Of a DNA stretch of 64,000 nt, positions 40,396 through 53,648 are shown piece by piece (the first letter of the stretch is position 1; the number at the start of each line of letters is the position of its first letter). Below the pieces are notes generated by a model. That model was not told where the DNA came from. It searched no databases and saw nothing but the letters and a program-made list of their open reading frames with translations. The stretch is from Candidatus Omnitrophota bacterium (GTDB lineage Bacteria; Omnitrophota; Gorgyraeia; Zapsychrales; Zapsychraceae): positions 90,184 through 154,183 of the forward strand of contig JADFYE010000002.1 in assembly GCA_015233195.1 (NCBI GenBank), read 5' to 3'. A program made the translations under genes and the position numbers.

Positions 40396-41526
40396 CTATT
40401 TCAATGTATAACTCGTGCTCCGTCCACCTGCGGCGTCTTTTCTGAGAATCCCTTTTTCCATAAGATCAAGAATATCTCTCAACGCCGTGTCTTGGGAGCA
40501 TTTTGTAATCTTTGCCCATTTAGTAGACGTGAGTTTACCCTCAAATCCATCAAACAATTTATTGACCATCATTTTCTGCCGTTCGTTGATCGCCCCGGAT
40601 GAATGCTTTTCCCAAAATTGTGCTTTTTTAAACACACCTGCTAATGTGCTTTCCGTTGATACAAGAGCCCGGTCGAGACAAGTCAAGAACCACTCAAGCC
40701 AAGTCGTAATATCAACGCTGGCACCTTTCTGCGTCTTCTCAAGCACATCATAATAAACACTTCGTTCCTTACGGATCTGGACAGACATGCTGTAAAAACG
40801 TTGCGCACTACCATCGGTCCGCGCCAATTGCATATCCGTGATCGCTCGTGCGATGCGCCCATTCCCATCCTCAAAAGGATGGATTGTTACAAACCATAAA
40901 TGCGCAATCGCCGCCTTTAAAACTGGATCAAAACCCTTCGAATCACTTGTGGTGAGCGAAGTCGAACCATTAAACCATGATAGATAACTCTTCATTTCTT
41001 GATTCAAACGATCTGCGCTAGGAGCTTCAAAATGGACACGTTCCCGCCCAACGGGTCCAGAAACGACTTGCATCGGACCATCTTTATCATCACGCCATAC
41101 ACCAATTTTTATTTTTCGCATTCCACTGCGTCCCCCAGGGAACATCGCGGCATGCCAACCGAATAAGCGGTCTTTTGTGAGTGGTTTTTTAAAATTTTGC
41201 GTAGCGTCAAGCATCATCTCAACCACCCCTTCCACATGACGGTCAGAACCAACAAGTCCAGCAATGTCCATCCCGAGTCTTCGCGCAATAGATGAACGAA
41301 CCTGACCAGGATCAAGCTTCTCACCTTCAATCTCGCTGCTTTTCAACACATCCAACGTAAGCGTCTGCAAGACCGCTTCCATGCGTAATGAAAAGCCTAA
41401 AGATTCCATCCGACCCATGAGTCGCCCTTGACGATTTCGTACTGTTCCAAGCTGCGCCGCGATCTTTTCGTGACTCCATGTAAATTGAGGCCAATTTTTA
41501 AGTTGATATATATATTTCATACTCAT
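40396..41526 (-). CDS. Fic-family protein (AMPylase-type) with N-terminal DUF4172-like region and C-terminal wHTH
   Basis: The canonical Fic motif is HPFEDGNGRIARA. The N-terminal block is LKNWPQFTW.... Confidence 0.9.
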   Translation of the reverse strand: MSMKYIYQLKNWPQFTWSHEKIAAQLGTVRNRQGRLMGRMESLGFSLRMEAVLQTLTLDVLKSSEIEGEKLDPGQVRSSIARRLGMDIAGLVGSDRHVEGVVEMMLDATQNFKKPLTKDRLFGWHAAMFPGGRSGMRKIKIGVWRDDKDGPMQVVSGPVGRERVHFEAPSADRLNQEMKSYLSWFNGSTSLTTSDSKGFDPVLKAAIAHLWFVTIHPFEDGNGRIARAITDMQLARTDGSAQRFYSMSVQIRKERSVYYDVLEKTQKGASVDITTWLEWFLTCLDRALVSTESTLAGVFKKAQFWEKHSSGAINERQKMMVNKLFDGFEGKLTSTKWAKITKCSQDTALRDILDLMEKGILRKDAAGGRSTSYTLK

Positions 41527-41605: not shown

Positions 41606-41972
41606 GCACAAGAGTATTTTATGATTTAATATGTTTCCGCAAGCGCGACTCACATTCAAACGTTATTATAATTCGTGACAGGCACTAATTAAGGGACACG
41701 ATTAAAATATCCCCTCCGGGGTAAACCAGTGACCTAATGTCTTCTGCCTTTGAATAACAACAAAATTTTTTTTTTTACCCCCCCACCCTGTGGGGAGGGG
41801 CAGGGGCAGGGGGGGGGGAATACAATAAAAACATATAAAAACATAGTCTACAGGACACGATTGCCCTTCGCTTTGCTCAGGGATTGGCTTTTCTCCTATT
41901 AAAAAATGAAAAAGCCAATAGAACGACGGCTTCGCCGTTGCACGCTCAGTCACGCGCTCACGCCTTCAAATT

Positions 41973-42003
41973 AAAAAAGGCCACCTAAAAGGTGACCTTT
42001 TTT
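41973..42003 (-). terminator. Probable ancestral tRNA-fMet terminator, now next to the partial tRNA copy (attL side)
   Basis: Stem aggccacc (41978-41985) pairs with ggtgacct (41991-41998) with one mismatch. On the minus strand it is followed by a T-run (A-run 41973-41978). It lies directly 3' of the duplicated tRNA 3' segment. Confidence 0.6.
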
Positions 42004-42006
42004 AAT

Positions 42007-42062
42007 TTGGTTGCGGGGACACGATTTGAACGTGTGACCCCCAGGTTATGAGCCTGGTGAGC
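42007..42062 (-). repeat. attL: 55-56-bp duplicate of the 3' part of tRNA-fMet
   Basis: tggttgcggggacacgatttgaacgtgtgacccccaggttatgagcctggtgagc is identical to 53572-53626. The two copies diverge immediately afterwards (ccca... versus tacc...). Confidence 0.9.
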
Positions 42063-42135
42063 CCACCCACAACTTATTGATAAATATAAACTTATGAAAA
42101 TTAAAAATCAAATGTGACGGATTTGTGACAATCAC

Positions 42136-42465
42136 CTATTCAGCCAATTTACAGCATGCTTCACTAAAACTTATAATGTCCTTTTCAAGAGCAATATCTT
42201 TTTCTAAATTAAAACAATTGCAAATATGTTCGCCTACATCATGCAAATAACAAATGACTTCCTGTAGAATTAAAAAAGTATATTTTTTAAAAATATTTGC
42301 GTCGTTAATATTTACCGTAAAATGAGTCATGTGAGAAAAATTACATAAAAACGCATAGTCACTTTTATATTTTTCAAGCAACCCAACATCTTCGGCGCGT
42401 TTTTCTACAAAAACACCGCCTAATTTATGTTTCATAGCACTAATGTTGGCTGTTCGGTCGTTCAA
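42136..42465 (-). CDS. Hypothetical protein, downstream partner of the DUF4238-like/SEC-C gene
   Basis: A 109-aa ORF starting 19 nt after the stop of the 823-aa gene, on the same strand. No motif recognised. Confidence 0.5.
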   Translation of the reverse strand: MNDRTANISAMKHKLGGVFVEKRAEDVGLLEKYKSDYAFLCNFSHMTHFTVNINDANIFKKYTFLILQEVICYLHDVGEHICNCFNLEKDIALEKDIISFSEACCKLAE

Positions 42466-42484
42466 TGATCAACGACAATTAAAA

Positions 42485-44956
42485 TTACTGATTAGAGAAA
42501 GATTCTATATATAAAGAAAGCGGCAAAGATTTTAAATATTTTTCGTGTCCAGCGTGTGCCAATAACAAGCGATAAACTGTGCTAGCGCTATGACCTGATG
42601 GAGCAATCTTGGCATTTAGCCTATACTTTTTCTGAATTACTTTAAAAGTCTCTGGGCAAACTTCATTTTTCCTTTTAATAAACTTTTCAATTGATGCACT
42701 CATATTTTTTCTGGCAAAATTCATTTCCTGTATTAAATTATCAATTTGTGATTTATTTGTTGGCGTCTCCTTTTGAACAGTGCACCAAATGTGTTTTAGC
42801 GCAGTCTTAATATGCTGTAACTCTCCTTCTTTTAATGTTAATAAAAGATCCTTCTGATCAGGAAACTCAACAAAATCAATTTCCAAATTCGTCATATATT
42901 TTTCAATAGCTTGCCATTCAGAATGTCCATCTCCATAATAATTATTAACAGATTCACAAATTTCAAACCATCTGTGTTGATGATAAGTTAGTATAAACGA
43001 ACCTGTTGATTGAGCTAAAAACAAACCCAATTCAAGATTGGGACTTAAATGCGCAATGTGCATCTGACAAAATTCTTCATCACTTTCATGAAGCTGTAAT
43101 GAAGCCAACGGATCTTGCTCTCTATTTATCTTAATTTCCACAAGAGTTTTTTCAAGTTGCTCATCGTTGATTTCAGGCATATGATGCTTAATAAATAATC
43201 TTATACGCTCATCAGGCAAATTAAACATACCTCTTATCACGTCTTCCATAGCCAACTTTTTCATTGACAGCATTACCTTCTCATCAATTTTCATTGTTTT
43301 ACACCGGTTTTGTGACGCTTCCATAATTTGTTGTCTTAATTCAAAGTCAAAATTCATTGGATCAGGAATCATATTGACCTTGCCAATTTCTATTAATGGC
43401 ATAAATGAAATAAAAAATAAAATGTTCTTTAATGTTTCTTGTCTAAACGTGGAAGGATTATTTATTGGATTGTATTCTTTAGGAAGAACATTTGCATTAG
43501 CAAACGGATTAATAATTAATATCTCATCTGCATATAAAGAAAATGCCGCAACATCCTTATAAGCAACACGCGGATCCAATAAACCTGAATAAAGCGCACG
43601 TGATATTTTTTTATCTGGCTTTGGCAATAAAGCCATTAAATCTGTTTCAGTTGGCCAAAGACTCGCGAAAACTTTATGAATTTCTATTATTTTATCATCA
43701 CTAAACTCTCGTCGAATTTGTGTCCAATCCTTTTTATCTAACTCAAGAATTTTTGTAAGAATCCGAAAAAACATTAAATTCCGTTCTCGGATACTTAATT
43801 CTGTCCATGACGACCTTTCCTCCATTGTTTTATCATAGCAACATCTCTTATATTTTTTAGCGCTTCCGCAAGGACAAGGGTCATTTACACCGATCTTGCC
43901 TTCTTTAGGTTCTTTTTTAAAAAAATTTGCTTCTGGGTGAGTTCTGCCATACTCATCGCTATAAAAATATGTGCCATCTTTATTTTGGCCATAAACTTCC
44001 CCTCCATAATTATAAAGCTTGTCTTTAGGTGGCAACAACACCTTACCTATCTCCGTCCAAGAGCTTTGAATAAATTTCTCAGGGTAAAGCCATTCTTTAT
44101 TTTCAGCAGCTAAAAATTGTTTTGATCGTAGCTTAATCATAAGATTTATTTTGGCAACTTCGTTGTCTTGTAACTCCCTTTTACAAATTATATTATCCAT
44201 TCTCCCTAAAGTATTTCGGAACGACTTCGCGTTAGCTCTATATATTTTAGGATCAGATAAATCAGGGTTACGGGCATAATCTAAGTTAGTAAGAATCAAA
44301 CAACGGGCACTATCTAGAGGGAAAACTGTTTGGGTTGCTTTCATTTCGATTCGAGGATCGTTAGGATATATACATTCTTCACTATTAGGAGGACAAGCAT
44401 AATTATAAGTTGTAATGGGATGATCAGAAACTATAAATTTTATTTTTGATTTTCTTGCATACACTATCTCTTTAACAGACTCAAACCAAAGTGTGCAATG
44501 CAATTGCCTAATTTTCTGCATTTCAAATAACAACTGATTATGTGTCAAATTTGGATACTTTGACTTCAGCCAAGCAAGCCCTTTCGGAGTACGAATTTTC
44601 TGTATATCAATGTATTCAAAAAACTTCTCAAAATTATTATGTAAATTTTCAAATTCCTGTTCAGCCATTGCACTCACAGCATTAAGACCTACATTATCAA
44701 TTTTCCCAAAAAGATAACGTTCAATGTCATCATTTAAAAATCCGTAATAATGTGTCGTATATAAATCTTTTTGGCAGAAACATTGACTAGGGCTAAAAGG
44801 ATAATTGATTGCTTTATCTTGTTTCTTGTGCCCATTGGGTAATTCTATTAGTTGTGGGCATAGATTTAAGTAATAAAAAGTGCTTTTTGAAGAAGATAAA
44901 AATCTCTTCTGATACCACTTTGGAACATAATGATTTCTACGTGTAATATCAATCAT
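42485..44956 (-). CDS. DUF4238-like N-terminal domain, SEC-C zinc motif and ~440-aa uncharacterised C-terminal region
   Basis: The N-terminus RRNHYVPKWYQKRFL and the block FIVSDHPITTY match my recollection of the DUF4238 signature. The SEC-C motif DPCPCGSAKKYKRCC is encoded at 43835-43885. Confidence 0.7.
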   Translation of the reverse strand: MIDITRRNHYVPKWYQKRFLSSSKSTFYYLNLCPQLIELPNGHKKQDKAINYPFSPSQCFCQKDLYTTHYYGFLNDDIERYLFGKIDNVGLNAVSAMAEQEFENLHNNFEKFFEYIDIQKIRTPKGLAWLKSKYPNLTHNQLLFEMQKIRQLHCTLWFESVKEIVYARKSKIKFIVSDHPITTYNYACPPNSEECIYPNDPRIEMKATQTVFPLDSARCLILTNLDYARNPDLSDPKIYRANAKSFRNTLGRMDNIICKRELQDNEVAKINLMIKLRSKQFLAAENKEWLYPEKFIQSSWTEIGKVLLPPKDKLYNYGGEVYGQNKDGTYFYSDEYGRTHPEANFFKKEPKEGKIGVNDPCPCGSAKKYKRCCYDKTMEERSSWTELSIRERNLMFFRILTKILELDKKDWTQIRREFSDDKIIEIHKVFASLWPTETDLMALLPKPDKKISRALYSGLLDPRVAYKDVAAFSLYADEILIINPFANANVLPKEYNPINNPSTFRQETLKNILFFISFMPLIEIGKVNMIPDPMNFDFELRQQIMEASQNRCKTMKIDEKVMLSMKKLAMEDVIRGMFNLPDERIRLFIKHHMPEINDEQLEKTLVEIKINREQDPLASLQLHESDEEFCQMHIAHLSPNLELGLFLAQSTGSFILTYHQHRWFEICESVNNYYGDGHSEWQAIEKYMTNLEIDFVEFPDQKDLLLTLKEGELQHIKTALKHIWCTVQKETPTNKSQIDNLIQEMNFARKNMSASIEKFIKRKNEVCPETFKVIQKKYRLNAKIAPSGHSASTVYRLLLAHAGHEKYLKSLPLSLYIESFSNQ

Positions 44957-45117
44957 ATTATAAGTAATTATTTACTAAATTCGTTATATATGCAATTATG
45001 ATTTTCAACTAAAGAAAATATTATTTAGCCATTGAATAAACGAACATTTAATCAACCCCTTAGAATAAGCAATTTCCCTGTAAAAAAACTTGTACCCTTT
45101 ATTCAACCCTTACATCT

Positions 45118-45772
45118 TTAGACACCCGCAAGAACTATCCACTTTAAGAATAACATCACGTGCTTTAAGAAATACCTCAGAAAGAAAACATCAAACTCCG
45201 GCATATACATATCCGCGTTTTCGTTTATACACTTAGTATAAAATTCGTAATTCTCATAACATTCTTGAGGTAGACCACCAAAATCAATAATTTCATGTAA
45301 TAGCTCATTGAGATCTTCTCGTCGAATATTTCAACATTATATGGCGAAATAGATGTGATAATATTATGGTTAATTACTCGCTTATTTTTAAAATAAAAAA
45401 TTATAAATACTTCGACATAAAGATTTTGGAAAGTTGAAAAAACTTCGGCAAGCTCTTGAGATGAGGTTATAGCCAATCCCTTCGGATTAAAGCTTAACCC
45501 TTTTTCAACGAGAAACTTTTTTGCGACGTCCGATAGGGAACCCTCGGTTCCACTATCCCCTCGGATATTTTCAATGTGCTCGTCTGCTTTTTGCTGATAT
45601 TCTTTTTCTTTGATTTCATACGCGACTTCCGTTTCCTTAACAGTATCGTGAATATCTAATTTTTTTTCTTCAATAAAGCGTTAAACGATTTCGTGTCTCG
45701 TAAGAACGGAGCTAATGGGCTGATAAGGTAAGAAACTTTTGATTTTTTCTTCTGCTTTTTTATGACTTTCAT
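45118..45772 (-). pseudogene. Disrupted ORF (at least two frameshifts, one in an A8 run)
   Basis: After a GGGAGA RBS, the ATG at 45772 gives MKVIKKQKKKSKVSYLISPL...ALLKKKN*, which stops inside gaagaaaaaaaattag. The next frame continues LDIHDTVKETEVAYEIKEKEYQQ...FKNKRVINHNIITS. A further shift gives EDLNELLHEIIDFGGLPQECYENYEF... Confidence 0.45.
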
Positions 45773-45923
45773 CTATATTCTCCCAAAAAACTTTTTGTTA
45801 TTCTGACAATTATATTATCATGGCTTTCTGTCTTGTCAATAGCCTCCCTACCGACGCTGTCTGATATTTATTCACACCCTTGTTTTCGGTTTTCTTCAGG
45901 GGTAAAGTTCTTTGAAAAGCTAA

Positions 45924-46070
45924 CTAAGTTTTCTTGTCTTGTGTGTTAGGGTTTTTCCCAGTCTTCTTCGCCGAAAGTATAGCCTTCTTCATTGCTCGGT
46001 TCATCCTGATCCGCTGTTCGTATAATCTCTGCTCTTCTGGATTCGGGTATTTTTGATTGATCGCTGTCAT
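45924..46070 (-). CDS. 48-aa truncated paralog of the 126-aa protein at 47867..48247
   Basis: MTAINQKYPNPEEQRLYEQRIRMNRAMKKAILSAKKTGKNPNTQDKKT aligns with MEEPRFQNPKQQKLYDLQIKLNRAMNKAILSAKMTGHKI. The upstream leader is also duplicated. It is below the ORF-track size cut-off. Confidence 0.5.
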   Translation of the reverse strand: MTAINQKYPNPEEQRLYEQRIRMNRAMKKAILSAKKTGKNPNTQDKKT

Positions 46071-46165
46071 TTTTTATTTCCTCCACTACCGGTCTTACTT
46101 ATTTATGCGACTCTATTAATAACTTTACTATTTAATGCTGTCTGGGAGTTAGCTTTATTCCTCAT
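45958..46165. repeat. Diverged ~200-bp duplication, copy 1 (copy 2 at ~48141..48340)
   Basis: ccagtcttcttcgccgaaagtatagccttcttcattgctcggttca aligns with ccagtcatcttcgctgaaagtatagccttgttcattgctcggttca. Similarity continues through the start codon and a leader containing ctattaata. Boundaries are approximate. Confidence 0.7.
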
Positions 46166-46218
46166 GGTTTCCCTCAGCTTAGCTAATTCCTTTGCAATGG
46201 AACGCATACGCATATGAT

Positions 46219-46350
46219 CCTGATCTAGGATATTATTGGGATATACCAATGTCATATCAATTCGATGCAAATGCCGTACCCGAGCCGACCACGATATTGC
46301 TATTTAGCGCGGGATTAGGTTTATTATTTAGAAAAAAGCCCTGTTCATAA
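46219..46350 (+). pseudogene. C-terminal remnant of a PEP-CTERM protein inside the island
   Basis: The plus-strand frame reads ...YYWDIPMSYQFDANAVPEPTTILLFSAGLGLLFRKKPCS*. That gives a PEP motif (from 46276), a TM helix and a basic tail. An in-frame stop just upstream leaves no N-terminal body. Confidence 0.6.
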
Positions 46351-46387
46351 GAACGAGGCTTCAACTTTTCTGCGCATGGTAGATAAG

Positions 46388-46606
46388 CTATTTAACTTCT
46401 TCGAATCTTCGCTCCCCGCATTTGGTGCAGGCAATTTTAATATGTGACCTACCGTATGCACTCAGCATTACAAACTTATGCCCGAATATCTCACACCTAA
46501 TTTTTATTAAGACCTCCGACCACTTCTTTCGAGATGATTTTAATGATACGCAGTTTTCTAATAAGTCCCGCGAACTCTTCCGAAGACATTTCATCTCTTG
46601 CCTCAT
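46388..46606 (-). CDS. Small zinc-ribbon-like protein
   Basis: 72 aa. Cysteine and histidine pairs occur in CEIFGHKF...CTKCGERRF. It lies directly downstream of the HExxH gene. Confidence 0.4.
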   Translation of the reverse strand: MRQEMKCLRKSSRDLLENCVSLKSSRKKWSEVLIKIRCEIFGHKFVMLSAYGRSHIKIACTKCGERRFEEVK

Positions 46607-46716
46607 CCAATATCTTTATTTTTGTTTCATTGTCTTGCGCCGACATAACGCCTTTTATTATAGGATCAAAAATTTTAAGATTATCTCCAGCACGTGCGCT
46701 ATTTGCCTTACCACCA

Positions 46717-47604
46717 CTAACGCTGATTCTCTAATTCAACATAACAGTCGGTATTATATTGAGCTATTCCGCGGCAATTACCACAAACGACATCTTGACA
46801 ACCTTTGTCCAATTTGATGCGTAATCTTTGAAAACAAAATGGGCATAAAACAACGGCACTCTCGAAATCCTTATCTTTTAATAGCTGACCTTTCCTATGC
46901 ATATAACTTACAACACCGTCGCGAAAACAGTCCCTTCCCTCCCCAAACAATAATTTCATTATTTCTTCATTTTTAATCGATTTGATTTGTGCATACAACG
47001 CCAAAGCATAACCCAATTCATCATTCGTTAAATAAGGCTTAATATTCTTTTTACTTATCCTCTCCTCATTTCCAACAACTTCCGATTTAGTACAAGGGGT
47101 TAACCCATTCAATAAAAAAATTCCCATTCCCAGATAAATTGTCATTAAATCCGTATAACGTTCATTATCAATCCCGTTATAAATCTCCAAATTATTGTCT
47201 TTTAAAAAAACATGTGAAATTTCATGCGACAGGCAAGCAGCTATTTGTCGTTTATCTTCCATAAAAAAATTATCAATCTCTATAAAATAATCGGTCCCGT
47301 TTCTTTGGACTACTGCCGCGCTTGACAAATTTCCTGAAAACCCAACAATAACTTGCCGCATATTGATATTCAAATTAGCCGCAATCCGACGTGTTAATTC
47401 CATACTATAAATTACACCGTCACCAAAATCTATCCCTTCATCAGTAATGAATGACTGACGTCGCAAAATCGGATGTTTAATTTTACTAATACCATGAAAA
47501 TTTTCTTCTATCCATGACCTTTTTGCCGCGACGTTAAAATATATTTTCGTCTTTTTTTCTTTTTTTTTAAAACCATTAAACATATTGTTCCTTTGTAAGA
47601 TCAA
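46717..47604 (-). CDS. Putative HExxH zinc metallopeptidase with C-terminal zinc ribbon
   Basis: The HExxH motif is CLSHEISHVFL, in an ImmA/IrrE-like context. The C-terminal four-cysteine ribbon is CPFCFQRL...VVCGNCRG. The start may be the internal MFNGF at 47583. Confidence 0.55.
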   Translation of the reverse strand: MILQRNNMFNGFKKKEKKTKIYFNVAAKRSWIEENFHGISKIKHPILRRQSFITDEGIDFGDGVIYSMELTRRIAANLNINMRQVIVGFSGNLSSAAVVQRNGTDYFIEIDNFFMEDKRQIAACLSHEISHVFLKDNNLEIYNGIDNERYTDLMTIYLGMGIFLLNGLTPCTKSEVVGNEERISKKNIKPYLTNDELGYALALYAQIKSIKNEEIMKLLFGEGRDCFRDGVVSYMHRKGQLLKDKDFESAVVLCPFCFQRLRIKLDKGCQDVVCGNCRGIAQYNTDCYVELENQR

Positions 47605-47866
47605 AAACTAAATAAAGAACCATCTTTTAATCTGTTAGAGGGAATCCTGCAACCATCTACCATCTTTATCCCCATTCTTAAATTATAACTCTTTATGCTT
47701 ACGCCAAAAATCATCCTCATCATTAATCTCTAAAACCTTCTTACCATCAGAATCTAATAAGACTAAGTTCCTTTTCTTTAGATAAAACATTCACAACATC
47801 ACTATCCGAAACAAAAAATGGAAAGGCGATTAAAAATAATATAGTAAACAAATACTTTCTCCTGCC

Positions 47867-48247
47867 TTAACCCTCATCATTTAAACAAAAATCAGCCAAA
47901 ATTTCCCCAGTATTCTTATCAATAACCACACAATTTGATGAGCAAAGAGACATGTTACCAAGTATTTCCGGATATATAACACACCAAGCGGCTTTTCCCT
48001 CCCATCGTTTCGCTAAATTATCAAAACCATATATTCGCTGACGATTGAAATTTACCTCATCAACTGTATAAACAAATACCGCGTTTTTAAGCGCATGCCC
48101 TAAAGCTATTTCTCGCGCACGATCTTTTGTAATTTTATGTCCAGTCATCTTCGCTGAAAGTATAGCCTTGTTCATTGCTCGGTTCAGCTTGATTTGCAGA
48201 TCGTATAATTTCTGCTGCTTCGGGTTTTGAAACCTCGGTTCTTCCAT
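47867..48247 (-). CDS. Hypothetical 126-aa protein (full-length copy of the duplicated module)
   Basis: The ORF has an RBS-like GGGGGAAATAA upstream. Its N-terminus is paralogous to the 45924..46070 peptide. Confidence 0.5.
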   Translation of the reverse strand: MEEPRFQNPKQQKLYDLQIKLNRAMNKAILSAKMTGHKITKDRAREIALGHALKNAVFVYTVDEVNFNRQRIYGFDNLAKRWEGKAAWCVIYPEILGNMSLCSSNCVVIDKNTGEILADFCLNDEG

Positions 48248-48340
48248 TATTTATTTCCCCCGGTGATGGTCTTTTTTCCCTCCACCACGCTATTAATAGC
48301 TTAACTATTTCGCACTGTCCAATAGTTAAACTTTGGCTTC
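48141..48340. repeat. Diverged ~200-bp duplication, copy 2
   Basis: See copy 1 at 45958..46165. This copy covers the 5' coding end and the leader of the 126-aa gene. Confidence 0.7.
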
Positions 48341-48506
48341 TATCAGCATAGTTATTTACCTTTGTTTATTTCAACAATTATAATATAAATAAGCGACAAC
48401 GTGATGTCGTAAACATTCGAAATTCATCATCGCACAAGACCTACCTTTGACCTTAACTCCTTTGCGGTTTGGGTATCTCCAAAAATATCAGCAACCTGCG
48501 CCTGAC

Positions 48507-49046
48507 TTAACATTCCGTGTAATCATATATTGCTAATGCCTGGCTTGTCTCTAAATTAATAATTAGGCATTTTTGATTAAAATGAATAGAAAAAAAAGAA
48601 CTTTTAGGTGAAACCACAACGAGCGTTGTCTCTTTTTTTAAAATATTTTTTAAACGATCCATACTAACAACTTGATTATCGACTTTTCGAAAATCAAATT
48701 CCTCATTAGGTAAAATCCTTACCCATTCATCAAAATCAGTAAGTAGTTTATCTATTTCCCAAGCACTAATATGCGGTAACTTATTAATAATAAAATTTAT
48801 AGATTTAAGACTAATACTGCTTACAACGAGCGAGTATCCATAATAAAATAGAACAGAAACAACAAGTCCAGATAAAATAACTGCTACAAAAGCACCTATT
48901 GGTATAACTTTTACCCAATAATCTCCAAACTGAAACTCAATAAGTCGTGCTAAATAATCATATAGACTCAAACAAACGATCATGACTGAAAACCACAACA
49001 CCATACGAAAAATAAAACTAAAAAATTTTTTCATCAATTTATGCAT
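48507..49046 (-). CDS. Membrane protein (two N-terminal TM helices plus a soluble C-terminal domain)
   Basis: 179 aa. The hydrophobic segments are FSFIFRMVLWFSVMIVCLSLY and VIPIGAFVAVILSGLVVSVLFYY. Confidence 0.5.
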   Translation of the reverse strand: MHKLMKKFFSFIFRMVLWFSVMIVCLSLYDYLARLIEFQFGDYWVKVIPIGAFVAVILSGLVVSVLFYYGYSLVVSSISLKSINFIINKLPHISAWEIDKLLTDFDEWVRILPNEEFDFRKVDNQVVSMDRLKNILKKETTLVVVSPKSSFFSIHFNQKCLIINLETSQALAIYDYTEC

Positions 49047-49126
49047 AATATTCTCCTTAATTAAATAACTATATCACCCAAGCCGTTTGGTGTAAAGAAT
49101 GGCGCGCTTCCTTTATAATTCAAAAC

Positions 49127-49348
49127 ATGGATAATGAAAGAGAGATAGTAAGTATATTTTCTAAACACCTGCGGAAATTGAGAATTAAAAATAATTTAAC
49201 TCAAGAAAAATTAGCCGAATTAGCGGATATTTCTTATAAAAATATCCAATACCTTGAATCAAAAAATCCAACCTGTCCGAACCTCATAACACTTAACAAA
49301 ATTGCTAACGCCTTCAAAATTTCTCTCTCGAAACTATTAAATTTCTAA
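49127..49348 (+). CDS. XRE-family helix-turn-helix regulator
   Basis: LRKLRIKNNLTQEKLAELADISYKNIQYLESK is a classic HTH_3 pattern. It is paralogous to the protein at 50929..51138. Confidence 0.8.
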   Translation: MDNEREIVSIFSKHLRKLRIKNNLTQEKLAELADISYKNIQYLESKNPTCPNLITLNKIANAFKISLSKLLNF

Positions 49349-49714
49349 CAACGCTGATTCAACTACCTTACTTCCATAACGACCTAAAATTTTATTAATC
49401 TCTGCTTCAGACTTATTAGGAAGTTTAAATCTCAAATCCTCCTCACTCTTTATCTCTTCATAGCCCATATTTTTTAATATTATTTTAGTGTTTCCATCCG
49501 ATAAATCTAATATATCCATCCATTTCCCTGCACTGACGACATATACTGCACTCACATTACGAACTTCCCCATTCGGACATCTAAAGACTAGTCGGTTAGC
49601 TTTAAAGCAATTCTCAACCGTCCTGTATCCATTAAGAAGAATGGCGTATTCTATTTTTTCAGAGATACCAACTTCAGATTCTAATTTTTTTAATCTACTT
49701 TGATAATTCTTCAT
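49337..49714 (-). CDS. Hypothetical protein
   Basis: A 125-aa ORF that converges on and overlaps the XRE gene by 12 nt. No motif recognised. Confidence 0.4.
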   Translation of the reverse strand: MKNYQSRLKKLESEVGISEKIEYAILLNGYRTVENCFKANRLVFRCPNGEVRNVSAVYVVSAGKWMDILDLSDGNTKIILKNMGYEEIKSEEDLRFKLPNKSEAEINKILGRYGSKVVESALLEI

Positions 49715-49800
49715 TCCTATTGCTCCCTCAAAAGAAATTTATTGTACTATTATTCACACAAAAAAAGACCTTCAGGTTCTATACCTGATTTTAAAGAGTC

Positions 49801-50862
49801 TTAACCTACTGTAATCATTTCACTTAAAGCATCAGGTGCATTTGTTTGTGCCAATTTTGTGCCATTTAGCTGGTCCAAACAATTAACGGCAAGTGTTTTA
49901 TGGTAACAACTTAGATGAGCATAGCGTAAAGTCATTTTGATGTCTTTATGGCCTAAAAGTTCTCTGACCGTATTTAAATCGATTCCTGCCATTACTAATT
50001 GCGAAGCAAATGTGTGCCGCAAGTCATGAAAACGAAAATTTGTAATCTCCGCGCTTTCCAAAGCGGAATAAAATGATTTCTTTATATCCACAAACGCATT
50101 CCCGGTTTTACCAACAAAAATAAAGGGGCTATCCGGCATTTTTCTCACTCGAAACAATATGCTTTTAACCGTCTCATTCATTGGAATTTCCCGCATTTCA
50201 TTATTTTTTGTTCTTAGCAAAAATATAATTCCCCGGTTCACGTCCACGTCGTGCCATTTAAGATTAAAAATTTCTCCCTTTCTCATGCCAGTATTTAAGG
50301 CAAACTCCACAATATCTTTTAAATAACCCTCGCATTGTTCCAATAAGCGCTTTATTTCCTCTTTTTCCAAATATCGGGTTCTTTGATTATTCAATTTATA
50401 AAACTTAACCTTTGCCACCGGATTGATGCCATTGTATTTTTCCCATTCGATCGCCTTATTAAACATGGTCTTTAAGGTACACAACACTTTATTAACGCTT
50501 GATTTACTTACTTTTTTAAGATGATCTATTTTTAAACGTTCAACATCAATAACTTTTATTTCATGCAAAAAGCGATCACCAAAATATTCATTTAAATGCT
50601 CCATATTATGTTTTTCAGATTTACCCCAAGTAGGACGGTTTGGCTTCAGATGGAGATCAATATATTCTGCGGAAAAGTCTTTAAAATTAACTTTTGAATG
50701 ATTTCTAATATCTAAAAATTTGTTCTCAGCAATATCAACCAACCTTTTTTTAAGGATAGTTTCTGCAATGGCTTTATTGGGGGCAACAACCTCCCTTATT
50801 CTTCGTCCATTACACGAAAAATCAATACCCCATTTATTTCCTCTTTTAAATACTTTTGCCAT
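49801..50862 (-). CDS. Tyrosine-type site-specific integrase
   Basis: I prefer the start at 50862 (MAKVFKRGNKWGIDF...). The catalytic region has TGMRKGEI (Arg), HDLRHTFAS (HxxR) and LGHKDIKMTLRYAHL (the Tyr). Confidence 0.9.
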   Translation of the reverse strand: MAKVFKRGNKWGIDFSCNGRRIREVVAPNKAIAETILKKRLVDIAENKFLDIRNHSKVNFKDFSAEYIDLHLKPNRPTWGKSEKHNMEHLNEYFGDRFLHEIKVIDVERLKIDHLKKVSKSSVNKVLCTLKTMFNKAIEWEKYNGINPVAKVKFYKLNNQRTRYLEKEEIKRLLEQCEGYLKDIVEFALNTGMRKGEIFNLKWHDVDVNRGIIFLLRTKNNEMREIPMNETVKSILFRVRKMPDSPFIFVGKTGNAFVDIKKSFYSALESAEITNFRFHDLRHTFASQLVMAGIDLNTVRELLGHKDIKMTLRYAHLSCYHKTLAVNCLDQLNGTKLAQTNAPDALSEMITVG

Positions 50863-50928
50863 AGCTATAATATACACCCAACAATCATTGGGTGTCAATA
50901 TTTATATACCTATTTATAATAGGGTGTT

Positions 50929-51138
50929 ATGAAAACTAAAGAAACATTTAGTAACAACGTTAAAAAATATCGCCAAAAGAACAACCTGACTCAAGAAGAG
51001 CTCTCAGAGATTTCAGGCGTCGCTTACAAATACATTCAAAAAATCGAAGGTAAAACTACACCCAACGTAGGAATTGATTTAGTTGAAAAATTAGCTAAAG
51101 CATTAAAAACAACATCCTCAAAACTCCTTGAATCTTAA
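50929..51138 (+). CDS. XRE-family HTH regulator, divergent from the integrase
   Basis: The HTH_3 pattern is VKKYRQKNNLTQEELSEISGVAYKYIQKIEGK. Confidence 0.8.
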   Translation: MKTKETFSNNVKKYRQKNNLTQEELSEISGVAYKYIQKIEGKTTPNVGIDLVEKLAKALKTTSSKLLES

Positions 51139-51329
51139 CTTATACTGTCAACCTTTACCGCTTTCAACCAAACCATAATTTCTTTCCGATTAAATTTCAC
51201 TAACCGTCCTATTTTATAATAAGGAAATTTTCTCGTATGCACCCAAGCATAAACCGTGCTTTCCTTTACACCTAGAAAGCTGGCTAATTCTTTTATCCCT
51301 AAATAACGATCATCCGTAAAACTGTTCAT
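51135..51329 (-). CDS. Excisionase-family (MerR/AlpA-like) DNA-binding protein
   Basis: YLGIKELASFLGVKESTVYAWVHTRKFPYYKIGRLVKFNRKEI matches the helix-turn-helix excisionase pattern. Confidence 0.75.
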   Translation of the reverse strand: MNSFTDDRYLGIKELASFLGVKESTVYAWVHTRKFPYYKIGRLVKFNRKEIMVWLKAVKVDSIS

Positions 51330-51709
51330 TTTCGCCCGTTGTCCTGTAACATAACTTTTTCTTCAATTTTATCTAACCGCTCTTCAATTTTTTCTATCTC
51401 GTGCGATCTAAAAGCAAAATTTAAAATATCTTTATAAACTAACCTTTTAAGCTCCGGACCTTCCTCGTCCATAAGTTCAATTAATCCTTCCACCGCTTTG
51501 ATCATAGCGTATTTCAAACGCTGCATACTAGCATTAATGACTTCTTCTCGTTGTCGTTTAAGTTCATTTTTAAAAACCTCATCTTTAAGCCAATAATATA
51601 TCGTGGTTTTGCTTATTCCTGTTTTCCGGCTTGCCTCCTCAATAGATGCTGAAGAAATGATATTGGCAATCGCAAGATACTGATTATTTTTTAATTTTAG
51701 TTTATCCAT
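51326..51709 (-). CDS. HTH protein resembling a phage small-terminase / regulator N-terminal domain
   Basis: The HTH SIEEASRKTGISKTTIYYWLKDEVFKNELKRQREE is followed by a helical tail. It is translationally coupled (ATGA overlap) to the excisionase gene. The function is inferred only from pattern resemblance. Confidence 0.4.
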   Translation of the reverse strand: MDKLKLKNNQYLAIANIISSASIEEASRKTGISKTTIYYWLKDEVFKNELKRQREEVINASMQRLKYAMIKAVEGLIELMDEEGPELKRLVYKDILNFAFRSHEIEKIEERLDKIEEKVMLQDNGRK

Positions 51710-51801
51710 ACTTAAAGCCCCTTTATGTGTTCAAAATCGTTCACTTTAGTGCAATAATGATAATTTGTTCACTGCCTTTTTATTTTTTAAAAATACTTAA
51801 C

Positions 51802-51984
51802 TCAAGTCTGTAATTTTTGATTAAAACGACCTTTCATATTGCCAATCCCTTTCCTGTTTGGATTCTTACCCATTCTGAAAGGATAAATTGGACATCCCGG
51901 TATTAAACAATCACGAATTTCACTTGGTTGACCATTAGAACACTCTAAACATTTTTCTCTGATTGATCTTATTGGTGTATTCAT
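51802..51984 (-). CDS. Small zinc-finger protein
   Basis: 60 aa with the four-cysteine pattern CLECSNGQPSEIRDCLIPGCPIYPFRMG. Confidence 0.5.
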   Translation of the reverse strand: MNTPIRSIREKCLECSNGQPSEIRDCLIPGCPIYPFRMGKNPNRKGIGNMKGRFNQKLQT

Positions 51985-52107
51985 CGCCTACCTTAATTTC
52001 CTTTTATATACATAAACATGATTTTCTTAGCTTTAGCTCTATTCTTTATCCATGCCAAGCATTATCTATATCTCAGCTTTTATCCTTATCCAAGCTTGAT
52101 CTAAAAA

Positions 52108-52187
52108 CCCGAGCCTCCGTATGCTTGTGTATGTCTCAGTTGGTAGAATAGTAAGACCAGTGCTGAGAAGAGTTCCGGAGGCCCGGG
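52108..52187 (-). ncRNA. Structured RNA element / complex terminator downstream of the 101-aa gene
   Basis: The outer 12-bp stem pairs cccgagcctccg (52108-52119) with cggaggcccggg (52176-52187), with one mismatch. A nested 6-bp stem (tctcag/ctgaga) is visible on the minus strand, where the structure is followed by a T-run. Confidence 0.35.
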
Positions 52188-52192
52188 AAAAA

Positions 52193-52498
52193 TTATAAAA
52201 TTTTATCAATTTCATATTTTGTTTGGTTTCTTTTACCAGTTCTTTTAATAAGAAGATAATCCCCTATTGAATAAACGCACATTTGTTTTGCTAATTCCCT
52301 TGATGTTCTGTCCCAAAACAACTCTTTTCCTTCAACCTCTAATTTGTAACGTACACATTCCACCTTTGTACCCTGAAAAGTTGTTTGCACCTTTTCAGCA
52401 CCAAGCAATCTAACTGATTTTTCTTCACCATCCGGTAAATCAAAAAACTGCGACTTGCTATCAACAAAACTGTTTAAAACATTTTTTAAATCTGACAT
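52193..52498 (-). CDS. Hypothetical protein
   Basis: A 101-aa ORF with a GAGGAGG RBS upstream. No motif recognised. Confidence 0.5.
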   Translation of the reverse strand: MSDLKNVLNSFVDSKSQFFDLPDGEEKSVRLLGAEKVQTTFQGTKVECVRYKLEVEGKELFWDRTSRELAKQMCVYSIGDYLLIKRTGKRNQTKYEIDKIL

Positions 52499-52616
52499 TT
52501 GAACCTCCTCATTTAAAATATTAAAAAAAAATCCTACGGATGTACTCCATAGGATCTAACTATAATATAAATTTAAACTATTTCCACGACGGATTAGTGC
52601 AAATAAGCCTTATATG

Positions 52617-53399
52617 CTATTTGCCAGAAACTTCCTCGATCATTTTTCTACACGATGCATAGTCTCTCTTTACTTTTTGTTTTCCATATTCAGGATTAGC
52701 AACAAAGTCTTTTGGGTAAAACTTAGCAGCTATTTGGGCCCAGCCCCATTTCTTCTTTTCTCGATAATCAAAAATTTTCAAATTACATTCATATCTATCA
52801 AATCTTTTTCTATTGTCTTTTTTAATCTTTGGGCATTCAACAGCATGCCAGATCTTCATAAGGTCTGTCATGTCTTGAATAATTCTTTCCAAAGTGCCAT
52901 TGACCCTTACCGCAAATTTTAAACATTGGATTTGTGGATCATTCACAATATTTAATTTGCCATCTCCGTGTGTTAATTCAAAAACACATTTTTCGTTTCT
53001 CTCAAAATCACGAACTATACTTTCACAAAAATACGCTGGATATTTATCACAATAAGCATCATTCAACTTATAACCAACTTCCACCATCGTCTTAAATTCT
53101 TTTTCTAGATGACCTTTTATGTTCATTGACACAGACTTATATAATTTGAAAAAAGGAATTAATGGATTAACAGGTATACGCAACCCAAATTTCTTTTTAA
53201 AAATTGCACAATGTTTTAACCTATAATTTTGCACTACATTTAATATATTGCTTTTCAGATTATTTAAACCGTTTTGATAAAGCTCAAAATCACCTTTATA
53301 TTCTTCATTCCTTCGCAAAAACTCCCATCTAAAACCATAAATCAAATATCTTTCTTCTTGTGCAGTAGTCAGCTCATTTATCTTTTTTTTTGCTTTCAC
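52617..53399 (-). CDS. Hypothetical protein with a 'WEFLRRN' (DUF6499-like) N-terminal motif
   Basis: YLIYGFRWEFLRRNEEYKGDFE resembles the W-E-F-L-R-R-N-x-x-Y motif I recall from mobile-element-associated proteins. This is the first gene inside attR. Confidence 0.45.
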   Translation of the reverse strand: MKAKKKINELTTAQEERYLIYGFRWEFLRRNEEYKGDFELYQNGLNNLKSNILNVVQNYRLKHCAIFKKKFGLRIPVNPLIPFFKLYKSVSMNIKGHLEKEFKTMVEVGYKLNDAYCDKYPAYFCESIVRDFERNEKCVFELTHGDGKLNIVNDPQIQCLKFAVRVNGTLERIIQDMTDLMKIWHAVECPKIKKDNRKRFDRYECNLKIFDYREKKKWGWAQIAAKFYPKDFVANPEYGKQKVKRDYASCRKMIEEVSGK

Positions 53400-53531
53400 T
53401 TTTTTCTCCTAAAAAGTTAAAGGTACAAGTAATCCATGTGCCGGATTTGTGCCAACTTTGTGTCAAAACTGGTCAAAATTCATGATAATTGGTAGTAATT
53501 GTAGCTTTTTAGAAAGGATTTGGCAAGAACC

Positions 53532-53562
53532 AAAAAACCCGACTATCTCGTCGATAATCGGG
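53532..53562 (-). terminator. Island-encoded terminator following the reconstituted tRNA-fMet
   Basis: Stem cccgactat (53538-53546) pairs with ataatcggg (53554-53562) with one mismatch. The A6 run at 53532-53537 gives a U-tract on the minus strand. It lies 10 nt from the tRNA 3' end. Confidence 0.6.
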
Positions 53563-53570
53563 CTTTTATA

Positions 53571-53626
53571 TTGGTTGCGGGGACACGATTTGAACGTGTG
53601 ACCCCCAGGTTATGAGCCTGGTGAGC
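53571..53626 (-). repeat. attR: the 3' 55-56 nt of the intact tRNA-fMet, identical to attL
   Basis: Exact match to 42007-42062. Confidence 0.9.
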
Positions 53627-53648
53627 TACCTGGCTGCTCTACCCCGCG
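53572..53648 (-). tRNA. Initiator tRNA-fMet (anticodon CAT)
   Basis: The reverse complement is CGCGGGGTAGAGCAGCCAGGTAGCTCACCAGGCTCATAACCTGGGGGTCACACGTTCAAATCGTGTCCCCGCAACCA. It is 77 nt with an encoded CCA. It has the C1xA72 mismatch and the CTCATAA anticodon loop. The sequence is close to my recollection of E. coli tRNA-fMet. Confidence 0.9.

Follow-up and report, generated by a model that had tools for sequence, protein, structure and literature searches.

A tRNA-Met island of an Omnitrophota bacterium with a small-terminase-like gene: a possible phage satellite of an undescribed family

Phage-inducible chromosomal islands (PICIs), among which are the pathogenicity islands of Staphylococcus aureus (SaPIs) and the SpyCI-type 'satellite prophages' of streptococci, are defined in SatelliteFinder by a core of integrase, regulator, primase-replicase, capsid morphogenesis and terS genes with a quorum of four out of five, and by the absence of tail, holin and portal genes (PMC10085698). 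Many accepted PICIs (Type B) have no capsid-morphogenesis gene, and more than 99.9% of the detected PICIs are found in Proteobacteria or Firmicutes (PMC10085698). The phage-inducible chromosomal minimalist islands (PICMI) of Vibrionaceae have int, alpA and a primase gene (DUF3987/DUF5906) as mandatory components, contain no terS, sid or ppi and integrate next to fis (PMC10803314). Here, a stretch of 64,000 nucleotides (nt) from a Candidatus Omnitrophota bacterium (contig JADFYE010000002.1, positions 90,184 to 154,183; the window in the following) was analyzed, which contains an island of about 11.5 kb in a tRNA-Met gene. The reading that positions 49801-53399 are the control and hijack module of this island, and that the island is a PICI-like satellite of an undescribed family in a primase-less variant, is given a rough probability of 0.45. 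Together with its relatives, the island makes up a conserved family whose members are small, integrative or circular and lack virion genes; homology and gene order suggest that the island functions as a satellite. Almost all phage satellites known so far are from Proteobacteria and Firmicutes, and to our knowledge none has been described from the bacterial groups that carry these islands.

The island extends from approximately 42063 to 53571 and is integrated in the 3' end of tRNA-Met(CAT), the sole tRNA gene detected in the window by ARAGORN. These limits are set by exact 55-nt repeats of the tRNA-Met 3' end, and the native tRNA terminator lies just outside the left copy:

53572..53648, minus strand: intact tRNA-Met (CAT), detected by ARAGORN and scored at 59.4 bits by the Rfam tRNA model
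53572-53626, minus strand: right attachment (att) repeat, the 3' 55 nt of tRNA-Met, from the direct-repeat search
42008..42062, minus strand: left att repeat, which copies part of the tRNA-Met 3' end, from the direct-repeat search
about 41982-41994: native tRNA terminator, a hairpin followed by a T run just outside (left of) the left att copy, from the hairpin scan
53533..53567, minus strand: intrinsic terminator carried by the island just past the tRNA gene, a 15-pair stem followed by a T run, from the hairpin scan

Both att copies are identical over 55 nt (the chance expectation for an exact 32-nt match is 0), and the left copy was also scored as a truncated tRNA in the Rfam scan, which returned nothing in addition to tRNA-Met and this partial copy. 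The G+C content is 0.32-0.39 within the island and 0.37-0.45 in its flanks. A third att copy dividing the island was not found, and tandem elements split by an extra copy were ruled out on this ground. Selected open reading frames (ORFs) of the island, a 48-aa ORF and larger ones, were scanned with Pfam, PHROG and PADLOC. The scanned ORFs contained no gene for a capsid, tail, portal, large terminase (TerL), relaxase or primase, as a first-pass annotation of the sequence had already stated. The module with the integrase and the TerS-like gene is placed at the tRNA end of the island and comprises the following genes:

52617..53399, minus strand: 260-aa protein, WEFLRRN motif at residues 25-31, C-terminal segment resembling a helix-turn-helix (HTH)
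52193..52498, minus strand: 101-aa protein with homologues 47-49% identical in two related loci (L008, L037), where they adjoin zinc-finger and TerS-like genes
51802..51984, minus strand: 60-aa protein with exactly four cysteines, C12, C15, C26 and C31 (C-x2-C-x10-C-x4-C)
51326..51709, minus strand: small-terminase-like (TerS-like) protein of 127 aa with an N-terminal HTH and two long helices, called from PHROG matches, fold and context
51135..51329, minus strand: excisionase/AlpA-like protein (xis), 64 aa; HTH_17 1.8e-14, AlpA 2.3e-5
50929..51138, plus strand: XRE regulator, 69 aa, divergent from int; HTH_3 1.4e-10
49801..50862, minus strand: tyrosine integrase (int), 353 aa if started at the ATG at 50862 (50898 when the first TTG is taken); PF00589 7.8e-36, phrog_1 6.4e-73
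49337..49714, minus strand: 125-aa protein with an N-terminal RLKKLE motif, from a small-protein family usually encoded directly after the TerS-like gene

All ORFs listed in the first-pass annotation were recovered by ORF calling at the coordinates it gave. Its module range held the correct genes and left out the last gene of the list above, which is conserved among the relatives. Its divergent arrangement of int and XRE was borne out, as was the coupled TerS-like/excisionase pair: the start of xis and the end of the TerS-like gene overlap by 4 nt, and the 64-aa protein reaches 24.6 bits with Phage_AlpA at a cut-off of 21. XRE and xis are convergent and also overlap by 4 nt. The divergent cI/cro-like regulators that had been proposed were reduced to a single XRE facing int rather than a pair, with a paralogue further to the left.

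The assignment of the 127-aa protein carries most of the argument. In the first-pass annotation it rested on pattern resemblance, and a profile search against small-terminase families had been suggested as a check; this search yielded matches to three PHROG families annotated as small terminase, with E-values from 2.5e-8 to 2.5e-7. An exhaustive profile search of 1.84 billion representatives returned 6,733 relatives at E<=1e-3, of which 1,075 reach E<=1e-10; almost all are 115-140 aa in length and aligned over the full length. Among 94 aligned relatives, every one matched phrog_2538 at E<=1e-3 (best 2.8e-16) and 82 matched PF13022 at the same threshold. An exact-sequence look-up of the 127-aa protein gave no record and a word-index search only three matches; the family alignments A2 (TerS-like) and A3 were too divergent to serve for locus scans. 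The AlphaFold2 (AF2) model computed with the family alignment reached a predicted local distance difference test (pLDDT) score of 94.7 and consists of a three-helix HTH and two long helices (residues 8-19, 23-30, 34-41, 44-79 and 86-125). When this model was compared with the PDB by Foldseek, the top six matches were chains of 2AO9, a protein of the Bacillus cereus prophage phBC6A51, with probabilities of 0.99-1.0 for the first five chains and a template modelling (TM) score of about 0.5. This protein is treated in the terminase literature as a nonameric small terminase (PMC7672466, PMC4737164). In BFVD, several of the proteins matched by fold carry the name small terminase. Searching PDB sequences with the family gave only artificial HEAT-like repeat proteins and no terminase; these matches are due to one helical hairpin at residues 57-97. 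The phBC6A51-type small terminases (2AO9; PHROG 2538) share with the island protein a length of about 125 aa, the N-terminal HTH, a putative helical oligomerisation region and the PHROG profile and fold matches, and differ in that the phage members lie directly upstream of TerL, which the island does not contain, and are 26-34% identical. On these matches, the 127-aa protein is no plain transcription factor; it is homologous to small terminases of phages and satellites.

Genomic context links the family to packaging in other elements. Distant family members are located in four contigs that are phage or phage-like (L004, L022, L089 and L090; compared loci are given as L numbers), in each case directly upstream of TerL. 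The TerL of L004 has a phrog_2 match at 7.4e-32 and a portal gene behind it, that of L022 matches Terminase_6N at 3.6e-13, and the downstream ORFs in L089 and L090 match annotated large terminases of GenBank phages. Only 14 of 50,697 GenBank phage records were matched by the window protein, and all 14 are 'Streptococcus satellite phage Javan' entries. The homologue in Javan130 is 33% identical over 107 aa and is encoded downstream of replication genes. The alternative of a plain transcription-factor family with no related satellite family, raised by the first-pass annotation, was therefore not what was found: within the GenBank phage collection the protein matches Streptococcus satellites alone. 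No TerL lies next to the TerS-like gene of the island, which would be expected if this copy belongs to a satellite.

To place the island among its relatives, 15 loci from species-representative genomes and 58 from metagenomes were subjected to ORF calling and clustering and compared with it. The informative close relatives encode TerS-like proteins that are 42-57% identical to that of the window, and their metagenome-assembled genomes are labelled Omnitrophota, Ratteibacteria, Planctomycetales and Deltaproteobacteria, with one Woesearchaeota bin. They are small islands adjoining tRNA or tmRNA genes wherever the flank suffices; others are on short contigs. A recurrent gene order was observed: recombinase (a tyrosine integrase or a large serine recombinase), small genes, primase-helicase, TerS-like gene, a small RLxKLE protein and an HTH_17 xis. 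The TerS-like gene is located just downstream of the primase-helicase in most close relatives, which use a DnaG zinc-ribbon plus P-loop protein, RepB_primase plus AAA_25, Toprim plus AAA_25 or a DnaB-like protein; a primase-replicase was found in L010, L014, L016, L019, L020 and L030. In L014 the order is the same as in the window, with the TerS-like gene followed by a 77-aa ORF, xis (50% identity) and int (52% identity). A distant family member is part of a 7,897-bp circle, which was assembled from two samples as two circular permutations (L029 and L030, 8038 nt each) that are 100% identical and each have a terminal overlap of 141 nt. Besides the TerS-like gene, this circle encodes an integrase and a primase-helicase, and it showed no match to virion families. 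The close relatives contain no TerL, and each of the large downstream ORFs encodes a serine recombinase, a UvrD helicase or a Fic protein. A protein of 427-437 aa encoded after the primase in relatives gave no Pfam, PDB or phage match save for a weakly MarR-like C-terminus. Taken by SatelliteFinder components, the relatives have four, as is typical of Type B PICIs (PMC10085698).

These same data bear on the explanation that the elements are integrative islands and not phage satellites. The 127-aa HTH protein would then be a transcription regulator or an excision accessory acting with xis and int, and the island would move rarely or by another route. Such a role would fit the translational coupling of the TerS-like gene to xis, its position next to the recombinase in several relatives, the lack of any close-clade member adjoining TerL, the numerous weak matches to HTH families in Pfam (MerR, HTH_28, IS630) and the plasmid-like ParA/ParB genes carried by some relatives. 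It accounts less well for a match that runs over the full length beyond the HTH and extends to TerS PHROGs, the 2AO9 fold and Streptococcus satellite proteins, for the use of the family as TerS by phages, and for the conserved place after the primase-helicase, which is the position of terS in PICIs (PMC10085698). This explanation is considered rather unlikely.

The relatives also differ from each other in several features. Serine recombinases are found in L008, L032, L033, L035, L036 and L044, while the window island, L009, L010, L014, L031 and L037 encode tyrosine integrases, and close relatives with the same core genes adjoin tRNA genes for Asn, Ser, Pro, Met and Leu as well as tmRNA. The same core genes thus occur with differing recombinases and targets, which indicates that the recombination module was swapped. 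A SpoVG homologue (PF04026, 6.5e-8) is encoded at L008 8589-8909 and also in L009, L010, L033, L037 and L041, upstream of the replication genes or of the block with the 101-aa and zinc-finger genes; it is absent from the island of the window. L011, from a bin labelled Woesearchaeota archaeon, has the same gene order as the bacterial L013 and a TerS-like protein 53% identical to that of the window, and could represent mis-binning or a cross-domain element. In a distant branch (31-36% identity; L076, L053, L064, L070, L081, L082 and L086), the TerS-like gene is downstream of a fusion of ParB_N and a DNA methylase. At some of these loci an HNH endonuclease gene follows the TerS-like gene, a layout typical of prophage packaging regions, and housekeeping genes start within 2 kb in L078, L081 and L082.

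A second recurrent component is the small partner protein with the RLxKLE motif. The partners are 57-125 aa long, begin with an N-terminal (K/R)RLxK(L/I)E and are often encoded with stop and start codons overlapping those of the TerS-like gene, which they directly follow in L001, L008, L010, L014, L031, L033, L037, L061, L070, L076 and L079. A further RLxKLE-motif protein is encoded at L006 10118-10593. The motif was present in 32 of 946 ORFs, compared with about 1 expected by a rough estimate. Similar sequences are EERLDKIE at the C-terminus of the TerS-like protein and ERRIERLE at the N-terminus of the large terminase in L004, and the motif may mark an interaction helix.

In place of the replication genes of other members, the island of the window has the 101-aa and zinc-finger genes. 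Both this 101-aa gene and the 260-aa gene had been described as orphans in the first-pass annotation; this did not hold, as the 101-aa protein has homologues in L008 and L037 and the 260-aa protein in L037 (293 aa, E 4e-16), where the motif is kept as WEFLRRD. The four-cysteine protein was correctly described, and its four cysteines are kept in four homologues. Its gene immediately precedes the TerS-like gene in L012, L034 and L037, and in L008 a 57-aa ORF separates the two. Neither of these small proteins could be assigned further: the 101-aa protein had no Pfam, PHROG or PDB match, and the 60-aa protein had no match to a Pfam or PHROG family and nothing useful in a PDB profile search. The layout is most complete in L037, a 9.15-kb element with an 18-nt repeat of tRNA-Ser at both ends. 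Its genes are, in order, int, cargo, the 293-aa homologue, a SpoVG-like protein, the 101-aa homologue (49%), a 66-aa ORF, the zinc finger (65%), the TerS-like gene (55%), a 71-aa RLKKIE protein, xis and Fic, and no primase was recognised among its ORFs by BLAST clustering and a by-eye check, without a Pfam scan. L008 has the 101-aa, zinc-finger, TerS-like and partner genes together with a serine recombinase at tRNA-Asn, and in L012, at tRNA-Ser, an HUH-Rep-like protein is encoded along with the zinc finger and the TerS-like gene.

The recurrence of the primase-less layout in L037 and partly in L008 argues against a one-off decay. It bears on the explanation that the island is an immobile, decaying remnant of a satellite or small prophage whose replication module was lost. 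The primase-helicase of most relatives is indeed missing, the RLKKLE partner gene is displaced from the position behind the TerS-like gene that it usually has, unrelated cargo of about 7 kb lies beyond int, and TGTGCC repeats within the 3' end of int suggest an older element end. Against this, the att repeats are identical over 55 nt, the ORFs of the module are all intact with overlapping stop and start codons, and L037, like L008 in part, carries the same primase-less block at 24-65% identity, these elements lying at different tRNA sites and L008 using another recombinase. Decay of this kind is therefore regarded as quite improbable.

The 260-aa protein was correctly noted for its WEFLRRN motif in the first-pass annotation. 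The DUF6499 domain of FseA/RovC activators has AWEFLRRN as its signature; among these activators, FseA turns on excision of a Mesorhizobium conjugative element (PMC10359603). PF20109 scores 21.7 bits on the protein at a cut-off of 23.8, no match to DUF2285 was found with Pfam, and a word-index search returned the protein itself only. A profile built from the protein and its L037 homologue matched the RovC sequence (6xz5) with a whole-sequence E-value of 0.0017; the WEFLRR helix and the C-terminal HTH-like stretch are colinear in this alignment, where profile columns 233-276 align to RovC residues 188-230 with a weak score of 5.5 bits. The single-sequence AF2 model (pLDDT 46.6) was too poor for a fold search. 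The protein resembles FseA/RovC (DUF6499 plus DUF2285) in the WEFLRRN near the N-terminus, the putative HTH-like C-terminal segment, their order and similar spacing and a length of about 260 aa. It differs in scoring under the curated cut-off, in having no DUF2285 match and in its setting, as the known members are proteobacterial and control integrative and conjugative elements (ICEs) or a type VI secretion system (T6SS), not satellites. Because PF20109 stays under its cut-off and DUF2285 gives no match, the assignment as an FseA/RovC-type transcriptional activator is probable and not firm. Homology to a 256-300-aa protein encoded at the same position in L008 and L010 was rejected (hhalign probability 0.5%). 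As FseA/RovC activators turn on ICE excision (PMC10359603), the resemblance could also indicate an integrative mobilizable element that is moved by a conjugative system under FseA-like control as in proteobacterial ICEs. Neither the island nor the related elements examined contain a relaxase, a coupling protein or a type IV secretion gene, and the packaging-type gene points to transfer by phage; this explanation appears highly improbable.

Candidate control sites were found in the module, and a second regulator is encoded beyond the partner gene:

50874..50895, no strand: perfect palindrome ACACCCAA-N6-TTGGGTGT, candidate operator, with one occurrence in the window
50898-50869, minus strand: promoter-like site of int, a consensus match
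50892-50920, plus strand: promoter-like site of XRE, a consensus match
52529..52557, minus strand: terminator-like hairpin between the 260-aa and 101-aa genes, from the hairpin scan
53437..53470, plus strand: three or four TGTG(C/T)C repeats with 11-bp phasing between the next site and the start of the 260-aa gene, from the direct-repeat search
53498..53526, minus strand: promoter-like TTGCCA-17-TACAAT facing the 260-aa gene, a consensus match
49127..49348, plus strand: second XRE, a paralogue of 50929..51138; its gene converges with the 125-aa gene and diverges from that of a 179-aa membrane protein (48507..49046)

The palindrome spans the overlapping divergent promoter-like sites of int and XRE, and the second XRE and the 125-aa gene form a second convergent overlapping gene pair besides XRE/xis. 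Similar doublets are located at 42113-42131 and 49848-49864, and TGTG(C/A)C repeats with 11-bp phasing are found near both island ends and inside the 3' end of int; they are candidate integrase arm sites or operators.

From these elements a cycle can be proposed for the island as a satellite. In the resting state, XRE would be bound to the palindrome between the divergent int and XRE promoters. A cue, presumably a helper phage, would lead the 260-aa activator to turn on the 101-aa, zinc-finger, TerS-like and xis genes. The island would be excised by Xis and Int, with the tyrosine integrase recombining the 55-nt att core. The TerS-like protein, a predicted ring-forming HTH protein of the phBC6A51 / 2AO9 type, would bind island DNA and recruit the large terminase of the helper, and homology and gene order suggest that the island DNA would then be packaged into helper capsids. 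Without a primase-helicase, the island would rely on replication by the host or helper or on packaging without replication.

Several results weigh against a satellite function. The island has three of the five PICI core components (integrase, AlpA-type regulation and, by homology, the TerS-like gene), under the quorum of four, because it has no replication module and no capsid-remodelling gene; among the scanned ORFs neither a primase or helicase nor a capsid-morphogenesis gene was matched. A pac or cos site was not identified in the island, and its regulatory sites are consensus matches only. PF13022 scores the 127-aa protein at 26.5 bits, just under the cut-off of 27.9, and the Foldseek E-value for 2AO9 is weak at 0.06. 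As the phage members adjacent to TerL are only 26-34% identical to the window protein, the close clade could have acquired another DNA-binding role. Close TerS-like relatives were absent from 2.9 million IMG/VR contigs, and no helper phage was found. The comparison with phage satellites made in the first-pass annotation is thus strengthened by a related family of tRNA-integrated elements without virion genes, and weakened by the missing helper and the incomplete set of PICI components.

Like PICIs, the island is small and att-bounded, encodes an integrase, an HTH protein of the AlpA/Xis type, a candidate XRE repressor and a homologue of small terminases, and has no virion or lysis genes; the tail, holin and portal genes that PICIs must not contain are absent from its scanned ORFs. 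Its relatives add the PICI order of a primase-helicase directly upstream of the TerS-like gene, and the Streptococcus satellites have a full-length homologue of the TerS-like protein (33% over 107 aa). It is unlike PICIs in having no primase-replicase or capsid-morphogenesis gene, in a TerS of the phBC6A51 / PF13022 type, in the occurrence of its family in Omnitrophota and other little-studied phyla and in the FseA/RovC-like activator. With PICMI the island has in common a minimal gene content, the integrase and AlpA-type regulator, accessory cargo and the lack of capsid-remodelling genes, whereas it carries a TerS-like gene and no primase and sits in tRNA-Met. PICMI was rejected as the closest family, since its members have a primase and no terS (PMC10803314). 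Markers of P4-like satellites (the psu-delta-sid operon, epsilon and alpha primase) gave no Pfam or PHROG match, and the 60-aa protein had no match to Ogr/Delta.

The remainder of the island is cargo, in which Pfam, PHROG and PADLOC scans recognised no defence, virion, replication or conjugation gene:

42136..49046, minus strand: cargo region with several small ORFs, from ORF calls and scans
42485..44956: 823-aa protein with an N-terminal DUF4238 (6.4e-10) and a SEC-C zinc motif (6.4e-8)
46717..47604: 295-aa protein with a HEISH (HExxH) metalloprotease-like motif and a C-terminal CxxC...CxxC ribbon, without a family match

The PADLOC matches of the 823-aa protein are confined to the SEC-C stretch, and the protein may be a defence gene product. 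A 76-nt direct repeat (87% identity, 45958-46033 and 48141-48216) encodes the N-terminus that two paralogous ORFs of 48 aa and 126 aa have in common, and a gene may have been partially duplicated here. In the right flank of the island are the housekeeping genes for DivIC/FtsB, enolase and an FtsH-like protein. Just outside the left att copy, a protein with DUF4172 and Fic domains is encoded at 40396-41526, and a long C run followed by a G-rich tract (ccccccaccctgtggggaggggcaggggcagggggggggg) lies at 41775-41822, between the Fic gene and the tRNA terminator and about 190 nt left of the att copy. A Fic protein is also encoded inside the L037 element at the matching end (L037 11063-12424). A shared-cargo origin of the two was rejected, as the identity over the Fic core is only 25%, and their position at matching ends may be coincidence.

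A wider proposal takes the island together with its relatives as a widespread family of minimal phage satellites that has gone unrecognised in Omnitrophota, Ratteibacteria, Planctomycetota, Desulfobacterota and other little-cultured phyla. They would capture the packaging motor of a helper via a phBC6A51-type TerS and a partner whose RLxKLE helix copies the C-terminal helix of TerS and the N-terminus of one phage TerL, and one subfamily would have no self-replication and be switched on by an FseA/RovC-type activator. In this full form the proposal is doubtful. Should the satellite reading be wrong, what is left is an ordinary genomic island integrated at a tRNA gene. If it is right, the island would be a naturally occurring case of a satellite with a packaging gene and no replication gene, the reverse of PICMI, and would bear on how few genes are needed for hijacking a tailed phage. 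An FseA/RovC-type activator would then also be present outside Proteobacteria and in a mobile element of a new type. If the family is real, the TerS-like gene together with the RLxKLE partner would provide a sequence marker for such elements in metagenomes, and satellite biology would be extended to candidate phyla whose phages are barely known.

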